UHGV virus genome: UHGV-0280754
Direction: 5' to 3' (one strand)
DNA: 25,851 nt
From: a virus
Numbering within the stretch: position 1 is the stretch's first letter; every line of letters starts with the position of its first letter. The notes under the pieces were generated by a model. That model did not search any database and had not been told where the DNA came from. It worked only from the letters and a program-made list of their open reading frames with translations. The position numbers were made by a program, and so were the translations under genes. Below, piece after piece: positions 2,726 to 22,775 of this stretch.

Positions 2726-3049
2726 ATGAAGATGCCAGAAAAACATGACCTGTTAGCCGCCATTCTCGCGGCAAAGGAACAAGGCATCGGGGCAATCCTT
2801 GCGTTTGCAATGGCGTACCTTCGCGGCAGATATAATGGCGGTGCGTTTACAAAAACAGTAATCGACGCAACGATGTGCGCCATTATCGCCTGGTTCATTC
2901 GTGACCTTCTCGACTTCGCCGGACTAAGTAGCAATCTCGCTTATATAACGAGCGTGTTCATCGGCTACATCGGTACTGACTCGATTGGTTCGCTTATCAA
3001 ACGCTTCGCTGCTAAAAAAGCCGGAGTAGAAGATGGTGGAAATCAATAA
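2726..3049 (+). CDS. S: Holin S (107 aa) with dual-start Met1-Lys2-Met3 motif (holin/antiholin)
   Basis: Product [25 protein letters not shown]... recognised as lambda S; hydrophobic helices; CCCC-TTATT-GGGG hairpin just upstream of the start codons, consistent with the sdi-type structure of lambda S. Confidence 0.95.
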
Positions 3050-3509
3050 TCAACGTAAGGCGTTCCTCGATATGCTGGCGTGGTCGGAGGGAACTGATAA
3101 CGGACGTCAGAAAACCAAAAATAATGGTTATGACGTCATTGTAGGCGGAGAGCTATTCACTGATTACTCCGATCACCCTCGCAAACTTGTCACGCTAAAC
3201 CCCAAACTCAAATCAACAGCCGCCGGACGTTACCAGCTTCTTTCCCGTTGGTGGGATGCCTACCGTAAGCAGCTTGGCCTGAAAGACTTCTCTCCGAAAA
3301 GCCAGGACGCTGTGGCATTGCAGCAGATTAAGGAGCGTGGCGCTTTGCCGATGATTGATCGTGGTGATATTCGTCAGGCAATTGACCGTTGCAGCAATAT
3401 CTGGGCTTCACTGCCGGGCGCTGGTTATGGTCAGTTCGAGCATAAGGCTGACAGCCTGATTGCAAAATTCAAAGAGGCTGGCGGAACGGTCAGAGAGATT
3501 GAGGTATGA
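3033..3509 (+). CDS. R: Endolysin R (lytic transglycosylase, 158 aa)
   Basis: Product [24 protein letters not shown]... recognised as lambda R; start overlaps the end of S as in lambda. Confidence 0.95.
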
Positions 3510-3943
3510 GCAGAGTCACCGCGATTATCTCCGCTCTGGTTATCTGCATCATCGTCTGTCTGTCATGGGCTGTTAATCATTACCGTGATAACGCCATTAC
3601 CTATAAAGAACAGCGCGATAAAGCCACATCCATCATCGCTGACATGCAGAAGCGTCAACGTGATGTAGCAGAACTCGACGCCAGATACACAAAGGAGCTT
3701 GCTGATGCTAACGCGACTATCGAAAGTCTCCGTGCTGATGTTTCTGCTGGTCGTAAGCGCCTGCAAGTCGCCGCCACCTGTGCAAAGTCAACGACCGGAG
3801 CCAGCAGCATGGGCGATGGAGAAAGCCCAAGACTTACAGCAGATGCTGAACTCAATTATTACCGTCTCCGAAGTGGAATCGACAGGATAACCGCGCAGGT
3901 TAACTACCTGCAGGAGTACATCAGGACGCAATGCCTTCGATGA
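3506..3943 (+). CDS. Rz: Rz i-spanin (145 aa)
   Basis: N-terminal transmembrane helix ([18 protein letters not shown]) then coiled-coil periplasmic domain; the N-terminal ~35 residues match lambda Rz from memory, the rest diverges; ATGA overlap with R. Confidence 0.9.
3705..3890 (+). CDS. Rz1: Rz1 o-spanin lipoprotein (61 aa) embedded in the +1 frame of Rz
   Basis: AGGAG (3693-3697) 7 nt before ATG 3705; signal peptide ending in lipobox LVVSAC, then proline-rich mature region; the ORF-track entry 3699 begins at a TTG two codons upstream. Confidence 0.8.
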
Positions 3944-4119
3944 TAGCGATAATTTTACTCATCATCCTTCACATCTGGCTCTGTAGACAGGGTGATGATC
4001 ACTTCTGGAGTGAATCCAGATTAAACATCTCATTGCTGATGCTTGATATTGAGCATCTGGCGCGCGGTAAGGGGCTGCGTTGAGATAAGAGCCAGTTCAT
4101 TACAAATACCCAGGATTTA

Positions 4120-4142
4120 GCCTCGCATTCGCGGGGCTTTTT
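4120..4142 (+). terminator. Intrinsic terminator downstream of Rz
   Basis: Stem GCCTCGC (4120-4126) / GCGGGGC (4131-4137, one G-U pair), loop ATTC, then TTTTT (4138-4142). Confidence 0.55.
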
Positions 4143-4409
4143 ATTCCCAACTCCATAGGTAATTTTATGACCCAGCATATTGGCGTAAAACTGATTAACG
4201 CCTTTCCGATGACGAGACAGGCATATAACGATTTTCGTGGCTGGCAGCTTCCTGCCGGAGAAAACGGCTAGGACGAAGGCTATCTGGTTGAATATCTGGA
4301 TGGCGGAAAACCTAACACCGATCGCTTTGATGGCTACGTTAGCTGGAGTCCAAAAGAAGTATTCGAAAAGGCTTATCGTCCGGTATCAGGGCTAAGTTTC
4401 GGCCTTGCC

Positions 4410-4646
4410 ATGGAAGCGTTAAAACAGGGCAAAAGTTTGCAGCGGGCAGGATGGAATGGGAAAGACCAGTTTGTTTATCTCGTGAAAGGGGAAAAATTAG
4501 CGTCTGCGTTGGGTTATGGCTTTGGCGAATATGTTGGCGAGCCAACTTTCAATGACACGCTTGTATTGAAAAACTCACAGAACCGCCTTGCTACATGGGT
4601 TCCATCCATTGGCGACCTGATGGCTGAAGACTGGCAAATCATTTAA
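4410..4646 (+). CDS. DUF2829-like domain ORF (78 aa); same frame as upstream ORF 4167-4271 and separated from it only by an in-frame TAG (see findings)
   Basis: Product begins MEALKQGKSLQRAGWNGKDQFVYL, the N-terminal motif I associate with DUF2829 (the family that includes Thoeris anti-defence Tad2); no clear SD before ATG 4410, while AGGT precedes ATG 4167. Confidence 0.5.
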   Translation: MEALKQGKSLQRAGWNGKDQFVYLVKGEKLASALGYGFGEYVGEPTFNDTLVLKNSQNRLATWVPSIGDLMAEDWQII

Positions 4647-4940
4647 CCATGTAGGCATTACAAAGCCTATCTACGGGTGGGCTTGATAATGAAACCGGAA
4701 TTTATTCTGGGCAACCAGTTACGGCAGTACAGCGATACAACCCAAGCCAGTAAGTGGGGAAATAACACTGGCAGCCACTGAAAGATGAACCTCCAGCCTT
4801 ATGGCAAAAAAGATTCTTTGTGGTGGCGGACTGATGGAAAGACATCGGATAGAATAAAACAGTGGCTAGGGTAGCTCCCGAAAAGCGGAATCGTCACCGC
4901 CAGCCACTGAATCTATGACGAACAACTAGACGAGGTTGAT

Positions 4941-5183
4941 ATGAGTGAAATTGATAAAATAATAAATGGTACATGTAACTTTCAATCAATGCCGCCAGGT
5001 AGTTATGTAAAACAATGTAGTGAAATAGTTAATTGTCAGCTTGTAATGTCAAATGCAGGACGTGGAGTTTCTACGGATGAAAAAAAATCAATAAATGAAG
5101 CCCTGTTAAGCATCAATGTTTTTGACTTGTTTCGCCCATCTTGGGTTATCTTGCAAAATAGTAGCCAATTCCCACATTATTGA
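4941..5183 (+). CDS. Hypothetical protein (80 aa), AT-rich moron
   Basis: GAGGT 8 nt upstream of ATG; coding sequence visibly AT-rich compared with flanking phage genes; followed by its own terminator; no family recognised. Confidence 0.5.
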   Translation: MSEIDKIINGTCNFQSMPPGSYVKQCSEIVNCQLVMSNAGRGVSTDEKKSINEALLSINVFDLFRPSWVILQNSSQFPHY

Positions 5184-19555: not shown

Positions 19556-19929
19556 ACCAACCTCCTTAGTTTTGCTCAGGATACCAGATGATACTTTATT
19601 GGTGGAGTGGTGTGTGAAAACGTGTCAACGACAAACCATCCACAACTTGGACGAATGATTTAGCAAAAAGTGCTATTTTTGGTGTTTGGTGTCATAGAAA
19701 AGTGAATAGCTCACTTTTCAACATTGCATGAAACTTGCAGGAAATGTGACATTACCTTATAGGTAACTTCGGCGAAAATGCAGTAAATGTGAAACGTAAT
19801 GGTTTAAACATGTCGCTAAAGTGGTTGTAAGTTAGCCTCCGAAGGATTGCTGATAGCTTTGTTATAGTATTAAATGACATTTGACATAGTTGGATACTTA
19901 GCTGTGGCTATCAAGATGGAGGTGTGTTC

Positions 19930-20373
19930 ATGCTTACTTGTTTTGATGTCGCCGACTACTTCCTGTCGCGGTGTGACGAGGATAGCGGTGACGCAATCTC
20001 TAATTTAAAATTACAAAAGCTTGTTTACTATGCTCAGGGTTTTTCATTGGCGTTGCTTGGCGAGCCTCTTTTTCAGAATAAGATGGAAGCTTGGATGCAT
20101 GGCCCTGTTGTCCCTGAGCTTTATCACCGTTATAAACAATATGGTAATGGTGCTATCCCTTCTCCAGAGTCTTTTGATGCTGAAAAATTCAGCGAAGAAC
20201 AGTTAGAGCTATTAGAAGAAGTCTGGGATGTTTTTGGGCAATTTTCTGCCTGGAAACTGAGGAACATGACACACGAAGAGTCACCATGGAGATCAAACTA
20301 TATTGAGGGTGTTGGTGGTTCTGAAATTAGTTCTAAGGAGATGGCAGAGTACTTTGCAACTCGGATTAACTAA
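19930..20373 (+). CDS. Panacea (DUF4065, SocA/GepA-like) domain protein (147 aa)
   Basis: GGAGGT 6 nt upstream of ATG 19930 (ORF-track entry starts at GTG 19924); motifs NLKLQKLVYYAQGF and EAWMHGPVVPELY are what I remember as hallmarks of the Panacea/COG3600 family; AT-rich relative to flanks. Confidence 0.75.
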   Translation: MLTCFDVADYFLSRCDEDSGDAISNLKLQKLVYYAQGFSLALLGEPLFQNKMEAWMHGPVVPELYHRYKQYGNGAIPSPESFDAEKFSEEQLELLEEVWDVFGQFSAWKLRNMTHEESPWRSNYIEGVGGSEISSKEMAEYFATRIN

Positions 20374-20377
20374 CGAG

Positions 20378-20797
20378 ATGGCAAGAAAATCTAAAAGGAT
20401 TATCCCCCCTGCTGAATCTACAGGTAAGTTAAAGTTAGGGCCGCAGTCAGGGGGGAATTCAGATCAAAAGAAACCGAAATTTTCATTCTGTTACATCCAA
20501 AGCTCTCACTGCATAACGAAATGCCAAAAAGATGAGAAAGCTGGCTTAGCTGATAAATTATACAGATTAAGTCAACTAACATGGGCAGATATTAAGCAGC
20601 AAGGTAGGCATAAGCTTGGATTTGAGAAGATTGCAAGGGGTGCAATTAAAGCAGGTATCCCCAGTCATATAACGGAAGACGTAGATCATTTCTTGGCTTT
20701 TAGATTTGATGATTTGAAAGCCATGGTTGGTTATCGTCTTGGATCGACATTTTTTGTTATATGGCTTGATAGAGAGTTCAACCTATACAAGCACTAA
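20378..20797 (+). CDS. Unrecognised 139-aa protein translationally coupled to the Panacea gene (candidate toxin/effector partner)
   Basis: ATG 4 nt after the Panacea stop; basic Pro/Gly-rich N-terminus (MARKSKRIIPPAESTGKLKLGPQSGG), Cys/His cluster (CYIQSSHCITKC), C-terminal GYRLGSTFFVIWLDREFNLYKH; the ORF-track start at 20303 is an out-of-frame overlap extension and was not used. Confidence 0.6.
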   Translation: MARKSKRIIPPAESTGKLKLGPQSGGNSDQKKPKFSFCYIQSSHCITKCQKDEKAGLADKLYRLSQLTWADIKQQGRHKLGFEKIARGAIKAGIPSHITEDVDHFLAFRFDDLKAMVGYRLGSTFFVIWLDREFNLYKH

Positions 20798-21588: not shown

Positions 21589-21788
21589 GTAAAGAATGTT
21601 GTTTCTGCGGCATTAGCGAATCAGACGCTGATCAAACATACATTTACTCTAAAGAAACAGGTCGGATGCTGTGTAGTGACTGCGTGTTGGACATCATAAG
21701 ATACAAGCATCTTGGATGTTCTGCCAGCATTAGCAATATAGGTGAAGTATATGAAGGGAAAGATATAACTGATAGAGCAGAAAGTTGA
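21585..21788 (+). CDS. Small Cys-rich protein (67 aa), putative zinc-ribbon, between arc and ant
   Basis: ATGA overlap with arc stop; Cys pattern CCFCG ... CSDC; no family recognised. Confidence 0.5.
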   Translation: MSKECCFCGISESDADQTYIYSKETGRMLCSDCVLDIIRYKHLGCSASISNIGEVYEGKDITDRAES

Positions 21789-21851
21789 AGCCCCAACTGC
21801 GGTAACAGTCAGGGCTTCGGTATCGTAAAACCACGCATAGGAATTAACGAC
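21778..21851 (-). ncRNA. Putative sar-like small antisense RNA covering the ant ribosome-binding site and start codon
   Basis: Minus-strand promoter inside the ant 5' end: -35 TTGATA (complement of 21881-21886), 17-bp spacer, -10 TATACT (complement of 21858-21863); about 70 nt downstream on that strand lies a hairpin (21787-21818) followed by a U-rich tract; arrangement matches P22 sar (from memory). Confidence 0.4.
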
Positions 21852-22775
21852 ATGAAAAGTATAGCAACAGCAGTATCTACTATCAATGTACCATTCCACG
21901 GCGCAGAGCTTTATGTTGTCAATCACAACGGTGAGCCGTACACCCCAATGAAACCTATCGTTGAGGGAATGGGTATGGATTGGGCTTCACAGTTTACAAA
22001 GTTAAAACAAAGATTTGCTAAAGGTATTGTGGAAATCGCAATACCTTCAGTTGGCGGTGTGCAGAACATGATTTGCCTTGCTTTACGTAAACTTAATGGC
22101 TGGTTGCAAACCATCAGTCCTAACAAAGTCCGCCCTGAAATCCGCGACAATGTAATCCAGTATCAAGAAGAGTGTGACGATGTGCTATACGAGTACTGGA
22201 CTAAAGGCCATGTAGTTAACCCACGCAAAGCTAAAAAGGCGTTGCCGGGTAAAATCACCACTGAGCAGCAGGAAGCCATTAAACAACTCGTCATGAGTCG
22301 CGGTCAGTCTCTGCCAAAAGAAAAACAGGCTAAGGCGATGATCACCATGTGGTCGTCACTGAAATCCCATTTTGGATGTTCGTACAAAGAAATCAGTGAG
22401 GAGCAGTTTACCGAAGCACTGTCACTTGCAGCTCGAGTTCCACTTGAAGGTGAGTTCATTGGCAAACAAGAGAAGAAAACCGACGAGCTTTCTGCAAAAG
22501 AAGCAAACAGCCTTGTATGGTTATGGGATTATGCCAACCGCTCACAGGCATTATTCCGCGAACTGTATCCGGCGCTAAAACAAATTCAATCGAACTATTC
22601 CGGCAGATGCTACGACTACGGTCATGAATTCTCGTATGTTATCGGAATGGCGAGAGATGTTTTAATTAATCACACACGAGATGTTGATATCAATGAGCCA
22701 GACGGACCAACGAATCTTTCCGCATGGATGAGACTTAAGAATAAAGAATTACCTCCTTCAGTACATAACTACTGA
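21852..22775 (+). CDS. ant: Antirepressor Ant (307 aa)
   Basis: Position after arc and before the tailspike as in the P22 immI region; size close to P22 Ant; N-terminal region resembles the P22 antirepressor N-terminal domain from memory. Confidence 0.8.
   Translation: MKSIATAVSTINVPFHGAELYVVNHNGEPYTPMKPIVEGMGMDWASQFTKLKQRFAKGIVEIAIPSVGGVQNMICLALRKLNGWLQTISPNKVRPEIRDNVIQYQEECDDVLYEYWTKGHVVNPRKAKKALPGKITTEQQEAIKQLVMSRGQSLPKEKQAKAMITMWSSLKSHFGCSYKEISEEQFTEALSLAARVPLEGEFIGKQEKKTDELSAKEANSLVWLWDYANRSQALFRELYPALKQIQSNYSGRCYDYGHEFSYVIGMARDVLINHTRDVDINEPDGPTNLSAWMRLKNKELPPSVHNY

Follow-up and report, generated by a model that had tools for sequence, protein, structure and literature searches.

Tad2 from phage SPO1 (Gp34.65; PDB 8SME/8SMF/8SMG, 8WJE) is a stand-alone protein of 89 amino acids. 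Two Tad2 dimers interlock along helix α1 into a tetramer, in which each ligand pocket is shared by protomers from different dimers (10.1101/2023.05.01.538930 and a second structural paper). In SPO1 Tad2, the main contacts to 1''-3' gcADPR are made by W25, N26, W73, and D79, while I63, T65, D67, H71, S76, and T78 are secondary or water-coordinating residues (10.1101/2023.05.01.538930). Homologues of Tad2 vary in the signals that they bind (10.1101/2025.08.24.671296), and in AcrIIA7, or HgmTad2 (PDB 8KBI and others), cyclic dinucleotides bind to a long insertion; the anti-Cas9 activity of this protein was not reproduced. Fused sponges are also known, namely Acb4-Tad2, Tad2-Sequestin, and Acb4-Sequestin (PMC12265669), and RyR Tad (gp68 of Pectobacterium phage vB_PatP_CB1) consists of an N-terminal domain followed by a gcADPR sponge domain with the RyR-repeat fold (PF02026).

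Here, we describe a Tad2-like gene interrupted by one amber codon within a 25,851-nucleotide stretch of viral DNA (UHGV virus genome UHGV-0280754), referred to below as the window. Compared to SPO1 Tad2, the window gene adds an N-terminal domain of ~73 amino acids, differs at five peripheral pocket residues, and has its Tad2 domain behind a stop codon. Its product would have a short, SPO1-like loop where HgmTad2 has the long insertion. Like the fused sponges, it joins Tad2 and a second small phage domain in one polypeptide encoded in an anti-defence slot, but the partner domain is none of Acb4, Sequestin, Lockin, Tad1, or Acb2 and belongs to no Pfam family. The layout is the same as that of RyR Tad gp68, with Tad2 rather than an RyR repeat as the sponge domain.

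The intact two-domain gene and its genomic setting

The structural genes of the window are 94–97% identical to those of phages vB_EcoP-611R6, HK620, CUS-3, Sf6, and Kapi1, and the long ORFs from terminase through tailspike match HK620 at 96% identity, which identifies the window as the late region of a P22-like (Lederbergvirus) E. coli phage or prophage of the HK620/Sf6/Kapi1 type. The features of the locus are collected in Table 1.

Table 1. Features at and around the interrupted Tad2-like gene (window coordinates).
Feature	Coordinates	Strand	Remark
Lambda-type holin	2726-3049		Upstream of the Tad2-like gene
Lysozyme	3033-3509		Upstream of the Tad2-like gene
Rz-type lysis protein	3506-3943		Upstream of the Tad2-like gene
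50-aa ORF			Upstream of the Tad2-like gene
Terminator-like GC-rich hairpin, then a T run	4119-4138	+	Follows the lysis cassette and precedes the Tad2-like gene
AGGT, modest Shine-Dalgarno sequence, 6-nt spacer to ATG 4167	4157-4160	+	Duplex energy -3.7 kcal/mol
Whole interrupted gene, probable pseudogenised allele of two-domain WP_000191869.1 (159 aa)	4167-4646	+	PHROG 872; alignment with E. coli copies
Part predicted to be still translated: 34 codons and amber TAG, first half of the N-terminal domain only	4167-4271	+	
Lesion: G-to-T transversion, GAG (Glu35) to TAG	4269	+	Comparison with intact copies
N-terminal domain coding region, residues 1-74	4167-4388	+	No Pfam, NCBIfam, or PDB sequence match; confident AF2 model
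Tad2 (PF11195) domain coding region, residues 75-159, now 3' of the stop; product not expected	4389-4643	+	Pfam; comparison with SPO1 Tad2
Residual 78-aa ORF from Met82, no Shine-Dalgarno sequence, lacks the first part of Tad2 helix α1 (SFGLA, including invariant F78)	4410-4646	+	
80-aa ORF			3' of the Tad2-like gene
DUF2560 gene			3' of the Tad2-like gene
146-aa ORF in the small-terminase position			3' of the Tad2-like gene
Large terminase			3' of the Tad2-like gene

The original prediction, made from the letters of the window, described a frame that starts at ATG 4167 behind an AGGT, meets a TAG at 4269-4271, stays open for 46 further codons, and totals 160 codons. Reading of the region 3900-4900 and the ORF listing agree with this description in full. 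The TAG is codon 35, codons 36-81 are open, ATG 4410 is codon 82, and the terminal TAA lies at 4644-4646, so that the intact product has 159 amino acids; the listing gives two pieces, of 34 and 78 amino acids, in one frame. When translated through the TAG, the frame matches Pfam PF11195 ("Tad2-like") over residues 77-159 (E 6.5e-22, profile positions 2-73 of 73) with 78.3 bits, against a curated cut-off of 25 bits. The 78-aa ORF alone also passes this cut-off (71.4 bits, profile positions 7-73). An end-to-end match is given by PHROG 872, in which residues 1-159 align to positions 13-171 of a 172-position profile (E 2.3e-69). PADLOC and NCBIfam gave no useful match for the intact protein or for its N-terminal domain.

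At the corresponding locus, complete E. coli genomes hold an uninterrupted 480-nt coding sequence for WP_000191869.1, a "DUF2829 domain-containing protein" of 159 amino acids. Searching a large protein collection with the restored sequence returned 2914 relatives, and more than 100 clusters of 154-170 amino acids are covered over their full length down to 54% identity, including clusters from Klebsiella, Raoultella, Enterobacter, Citrobacter, and Pseudomonas phage Skulduggery. The same two-domain architecture is found in phage N4 (EF056009.1, the ORF labelled gp49). Conservation over the full length across these relatives indicates that the two-domain protein is an established, conserved gene rather than a chance open frame. 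Comparison of 21 close DNA alleles gave 18 synonymous and 11 missense variant codons, which fits purifying selection. The exact intact protein of 159 amino acids is present on at least 1000 contigs, compared to 10-20 contigs for the 78-aa product, and the intact gene is a known, widely annotated prophage anti-defence gene.

The C-terminal domain aligns without gaps to SPO1 Tad2 at 48% identity and resembles experimentally characterised Tad2 proteins in sequence and fold. SPO1 residues W25, N26, W73, S76, and D79 are kept as W96, N97, W144, S147, and D150, and 54 two-domain homologues all share W96, W144, and D150. By all sequence and fold measures applied, this domain is a member of the Tad2 family, as had been proposed from the downstream part of the frame. 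The identity to SPO1 Tad2 suggests that the intact protein would be a sponge with anti-Thoeris action: as a tetramer, its C-terminal domain would capture the ADP-ribose signals that TIR proteins make (3'cADPR/gcADPR), and Thoeris effectors would consequently not be switched on. Five second-shell or water-coordinating positions are replaced relative to SPO1 Tad2 (I63L, T65N, D67Q, H71A, and T78G), and the ligand could therefore differ. Our literature search found no published test of the two-domain E. coli protein, and the supplements of a 2025 preprint on sponge diversity, in which 18 Tad2 homologues were tested, contained none of its sequence motifs.

The original prediction also regarded the place right after the lysis cassette as a typical moron and anti-defence slot, and close relatives lend support to this view. 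In E. coli 55989, in EC21Z-014, and in one further locus (L048), the gene directly 3' encodes a "Gp49 family" PF13876 protein, and PF13876 is the Acb4 family of anti-CBASS sponges (PMC12265669). Phage vB_EcoP_Kapi1 (MT813197.1) has a positional orthologue, Kapi1_043, flanked by the Rz region on one side and the small terminase on the other. Upstream of it, the DNA is near-identical to that of the window; the first 263 nt are 97.7% identical and the N-terminal domain is identical in protein sequence. Unlike the window copy, Kapi1_043 is intact; it has 173 amino acids, and its Tad2-type C-terminal domain is longer and divergent. It is reported to be the top-expressed Kapi1 gene in the lysogen under all conditions and has been proposed to be a Tad2-like anti-defence protein (PMC12922286). 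The slot between the lysis and terminase genes thus looks like an anti-defence or moron slot, and the window gene would be an accessory gene located between these two sets of genes in an HK620/Sf6/Kapi1-like E. coli prophage. The hairpin in front of the gene is kept in Kapi1, E. coli 8GC, and E. coli 55989, and a consensus scan between this hairpin and ATG 4167 gave no sigma-70-like site on the + strand that could serve as the gene's own promoter and account for the expression reported for Kapi1 lysogens.

A nonsense allele at codon 35

The gene for WP_000191869.1 in E. coli prophages, for example those of strains 55989, 8GC, and EC21Z-014, occupies the same position after the lysis cassette and reads GAG at codon 35. 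An alignment of 521 nt with three intact E. coli copies locates the lesion to one base: the sole difference between the window and the copies in 8GC and 55989 is a T for G at position 4269. All 43 other copies examined have the G; 40 of them are IMG/VR loci, found by a pattern scan with N at the variable base, and three are the E. coli loci. A query of 63 nt with codon 35 in its middle found the segment in 45 complete E. coli genomes, none of which matched exactly or carried the TAG. A 37-nt pattern around the codon, again with N at the variable base, gave 0 matches in GTDB genomes, a set with one genome per species that is uninformative either way. The ancestral codon 35 is GAG. The homologue search with the read-through translation, which had been proposed as a check, returned proteins that are full-length across the TAG position; homologues do not consistently consist of two separate genes with a stop there, and the C-terminal ORF has the DUF2829 profile match. 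Of the three readings offered at the outset, a recently inactivated two-domain gene is the one that these results favour. The structural ORFs from terminase through tailspike are long and without interruption, and the amber codon is thus an isolated hit and not part of a general decay.

Other prophages carry disruptions of the same gene. Codon 37 is changed from GAA to TAA (E37*) in SRR29134195 (L046), and codon 42 from GAA to TAA (E42*) in two further entries (L050 and P0157). A product of 46 amino acids (P0154) is consistent with a stop at Gly47, another product is frameshifted (P0155), and a third reaches the end of IS5 near codon 50 (P0156). Further junctions lie at codons 50-51 (P0150, P0158), and fusions to the ends of other sequence occur at Ser59 (P0136, P0137), Tyr57 (L048, P0032), and Leu80 (P0144). 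The 99 nt in front of the L048 junction are part of a multicopy element: the L048 query was found at up to 26 places per genome and at 1410 places on plasmids, as expected for an IS end. We rejected one further candidate (L052), a chimeric metagenome contig of 1 kb in which unrelated upstream sequence is joined to the gene at a short shared word.

These disruptions lie in non-identical prophages and are independent of the window allele. The nonsense alleles, at codons 35, 37, 42, and probably 47, would all be G-to-T changes, and all four fall within codons 35-47. The look-ups could recover stops only in codons 16-81, upstream of Met82, where 8 sites for G-to-T nonsense changes exist, so the clustering is mild and its meaning unproven. 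Since the queries were limited to disruptions upstream of Met82, no claim of an enrichment or a hotspot is justified. The simplest view is that of a dispensable accessory gene that is occasionally lost in lysogens.

Taken at this level, the amber codon is best read as a recent, real, and ordinary null allele of a dispensable anti-defence gene and not as a recoding device, a reading to which we assign a probability of roughly 85%. The G-to-T change at 4269 turns Glu35 into an amber codon, translation from ATG 4167 would end after 34 residues, and the Tad2 domain would not be made in useful amounts, although a low level of UAG read-through or of weak internal initiation may occur. The loss of function was probably neutral, an assumption of this reading.

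Alternative readings of the amber codon

That the TAG is an error of sequencing or assembly, with the gene in truth intact, was one of the readings proposed at the outset. The change concerns a single base and is found in no complete RefSeq E. coli genome, and G-to-T changes are a known class of oxidative-damage artefact. Yet a look-up of the exact 78-aa product in an assembly collection returned 20 contigs, and three of these further assemblies, L044 (ENA ERZ27266787), L045 (Logan ERR4035839), and L047 (SRR23883308), share 4.1-6.2 kb with the window at 100% identity, and this stretch includes the TAG; the L045 contig was seen in three samples. The 34-aa product of 4167-4271 is likewise called in other assemblies: a fourth dataset (L057, metagenome assembly ERZ28657758) encodes both of them, first the 34-aa and then the 78-aa product, with an unchanged gene order, and an NCBI contig of 4,897,927 bp likewise encodes the 34-aa peptide. 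The 78-aa product has NCBI protein accessions (HCS5822695.1 and others). A random error would not recur in this manner, and the same TAG in independent runs and pipelines identifies a real allele of one circulating prophage clone and not a one-off sequencing error, which is extremely unlikely.

The remaining proposal from the outset, a full-length product made only in amber-suppressor hosts or through programmed read-through, with the stop as a regulatory device or an adaptation to such hosts, draws on the perfectly intact frame past the stop and on the place of E35 outside the conserved columns, where glutamine or another suppressor residue would probably be tolerated. A very recent mutation would equally leave the downstream frame intact, however, and nothing has conserved the stop, as it is absent from the 43 other copies and from the 45 complete genomes. 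The allele is private to one clone. ARAGORN found no tRNA anywhere in the 25.8-kb window, the antiterminator-holin gap (2051-2725) included, and hence no cognate suppressor tRNA there. The TAA stops, IS elements, and frameshift of the other strains could not be suppressed by the same route. Dependence of the gene on suppression or read-through is on these grounds highly improbable.

Another possibility is that the gene has been split, the 78-aa ORF still being translated from ATG 4410 and working as a short stand-alone Tad2. Stand-alone Tad2 proteins have ~89 amino acids, gene callers annotate the 78-aa ORF, and this ORF keeps all ligand-contact residues along with its Pfam score above the threshold. 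The start itself speaks against translation. It lies 138 nt past the stop, which makes coupling or re-initiation unlikely, and it has no clear Shine-Dalgarno sequence, as had been noticed at the outset: the anti-SD duplex energy in the 17 nt upstream is -1.7 kcal/mol, weaker than the value for ATG 4167 and than the mean of -2.3 kcal/mol over all 571 ATGs of the window, while most real starts have -4 to -10 kcal/mol. No frame whose start has a ribosome-binding site spans the complete Tad2 domain without interruption. The product from Met82 would in addition lack the beginning of the helix that holds the tetramer together: its Pfam match begins only at position 7, and it is without F78, invariant in the 54 homologues, and without G79 and A81, both conserved at 90% or more among these proteins. 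As a ligand pocket requires protomers from different dimers, a working short Tad2 is very improbable. From the lack of a tRNA in the window, the lack of a Shine-Dalgarno sequence at 4410, and the truncated helix α1, we infer that the allele would yield no functional Tad2.

A null allele could also have been selected. Under this explanation a constitutively made prophage sponge is costly, for example by tripping Panoptes or soaking up host nucleotides, and knock-outs recur for that reason. The at least 8 independent disruptions of one small gene would fit, as would the expression of the Kapi1 orthologue, reported to exceed that of every other prophage gene in the lysogen (PMC12922286). Panoptes can be activated by sponges (PMC12657218), and the affinity of HgmTad2 for c-di-GMP is in the picomolar range. 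Of four Tad2 proteins tested, however, only one gave even a slight Panoptes effect (PMC12657218). Disrupted alleles amount to tens of contigs against the 1000 or more that carry one and the same intact sequence, E. coli has been sampled so deeply that rare null alleles are expected of any accessory gene, and the look-ups were biased towards N-terminal disruptions. Selection for loss is thus unlikely, and we retain the reading of an ordinary null allele, probably lost without consequence for fitness.

The N-terminal module and consequences for annotation

The N-terminal domain is described by the motif RGW.LP.DE.G.DEGYLVEY.DGGKPN...GYVSWSPK.VFE..Y, and residues G38, L40, V41, E42, Y43, D45, G46, G47, N50, G56, Y57, S59, W60, S61, and P62 are invariant in the 54 homologues. 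Along with the searches listed in Table 1 for residues 1-74, the confident AF2 model gave no convincing structural neighbour. The domain also exists by itself, in stand-alone proteins of 73-78 amino acids that are 53-81% identical to it, such as one from Erwinia phage phiEaP8. A profile built from 26 stand-alone proteins matches 2568 representative proteins at E <= 1e-3, in which the domain is N-terminal, C-terminal, or internal. Among the best 144 of these 2568, 107 are fusions to known sponge domains: 46 to Sequestin (PF21825), 43 to Tad2 (PF11195), 16 to Acb4 (PF13876), and 2 to the Acb2/Tad1 hairpin (PF24729). Residues 1-71 of RyR Tad gp68 are homologous to the domain as well (hhalign probability 98%, E 2.5e-13). 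The N-terminal domain of the window gene therefore belongs to the same sponge-associated module as the gp68 N-terminal domain and the stand-alone copies, a module that is fused to five sponge families (Sequestin, Tad2, Acb4, the Acb2/Tad1 hairpin, and RyR Tad).

The module has already been noticed in the literature, where it is left unexplained. By itself, the N-terminal domain of gp68 forms a strand-swapped dimer in the crystal and showed no activity against type I Thoeris (10.64898/2026.06.04.730250). This test covered type I Thoeris only and did not address other signals. Tentatively, the ~73-aa module may be an anti-defence element itself, either a sixth sponge family or a shared accessory for the assembly of sponges or for evading the sensing of sponges. 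Its near-exclusive association with sponges is the most interesting feature of the locus, and the amber at codon 35 cuts the module in half.

For annotation, the prophage should be recorded with a pseudogene, a disrupted Tad2-like anti-Thoeris gene, and not with a 78-aa "DUF2829 protein" or a suppressor-dependent gene. Those who use this phage or its lysogen in studies of defence and counter-defence should expect the Tad2-like counter-defence to be absent. Because gene callers report the 78-aa remnant as a DUF2829 protein, automatic counts of anti-defence genes include dead copies. The module in front of the Tad2 domain, which has no Pfam family and is the commonest unexplained partner of four or five sponge families, is a candidate for inclusion in immune-signal panels.

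Disruption and expression of the Tad2-like gene

Other E. coli prophages carry independent disruptions of the Tad2-like gene, as seen at loci L046, L048 and L050 and in the related proteins P0136, P0137, P0144, P0150 and P0154-P0158. Nonsense alleles elsewhere stop at codons 37 and 42, and a 46-aa product fits termination at codon 47. The remaining disruptions are a frameshift, an IS5 junction at about codon 50 and further junctions within the gene at codons 50-51, 57, 59 and 80. One candidate, L052:1-503, was rejected as a true allele: on this 1-kb metagenome contig, unrelated upstream sequence meets the gene midway at a short shared word, and the contig is almost certainly an assembly chimera. 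As this example illustrates, not every match to the 78-aa product (the residual ORF downstream of the amber codon) on a short contig is a true allele.

The orthologue in phage Kapi1 has been reported as the top-expressed prophage gene in lysogens (PMC12922286), and the region upstream of it is nearly identical to that in the window. This reported expression contrasts with the window, where no sigma-70-like promoter was found between the terminator-like hairpin and ATG 4167 (4119-4166).

Features of the window
Feature	Position	Strand	Details
Terminator-like hairpin	within 4119-4166		28 nt before ATG 4167
N-terminal module, ~73 aa	4167-4388	+	no Pfam family
int-alpA RNA motif (RF02996)	4859-4921	+	Rfam match, 42 bits (gathering score 35.8), E 1.1e-05
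SocA/Panacea-domain protein	19924-20373	+	PF13274, E 8e-25
164-aa ORF	20303-20797	+	overlapped by SocA/Panacea gene; no Pfam match
sar antisense RNA, full-length	21783-21850	-	RF00262, 85.7 bits
P22-type antirepressor	21852-22775	+	P22_AR_N and P22_AR_C domains

The N-terminal module and the naming of relatives

The N-terminal module occurs alone as well as joined to one of several sponge domains: Sequestin, Tad2, Acb4, Acb2/Tad1-hairpin or RyR-Tad (related proteins P0175, P0176, P0208, P0233, P0241 and P0247; locus L055:15143-15355). Fusions to sponge domains account for 107 of the best 144 among 2568 representatives containing the module, and the N-domain of the RyR Tad, gp68, is homologous to it.

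Relatives of the Tad2-like gene are labelled "anti-CRISPR protein" in two phage records (PQ850609.1, Huey; PQ850616.1, Louie). This label probably derives from the link between AcrIIA7 and DUF2829, which was not reproduced by later work. In phage N4 (EF056009.1), the ORF labelled gp49 (L056:680-1162) encodes a protein with the N-domain and Tad2, and is not a member of PF13876.

The immI-like region and its neighbors

The sar RNA adjoins the antirepressor gene, and together they form an immI-like region, as in P22. Between this region and the DNA-transfer genes lie the SocA/Panacea gene and the 164-aa ORF, which may be an inserted pair of the Panacea type, either a toxin-antitoxin system or a defence one.

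The slot downstream of the Tad2-like gene

The int-alpA RNA match is placed between the Tad2-like gene and an 80-aa ORF (4941-5183). In close relatives, a gene of the PF13876 "Gp49 family", the Acb4 sponge family, stands immediately 3′ of the Tad2-like gene (L002:2479-2859, L003:2479-2859 and L048:647-1003), whereas the window carries the unrelated 80-aa ORF at this position. Anti-defence cargo seems to be swapped in the slot downstream of the Tad2-like gene.
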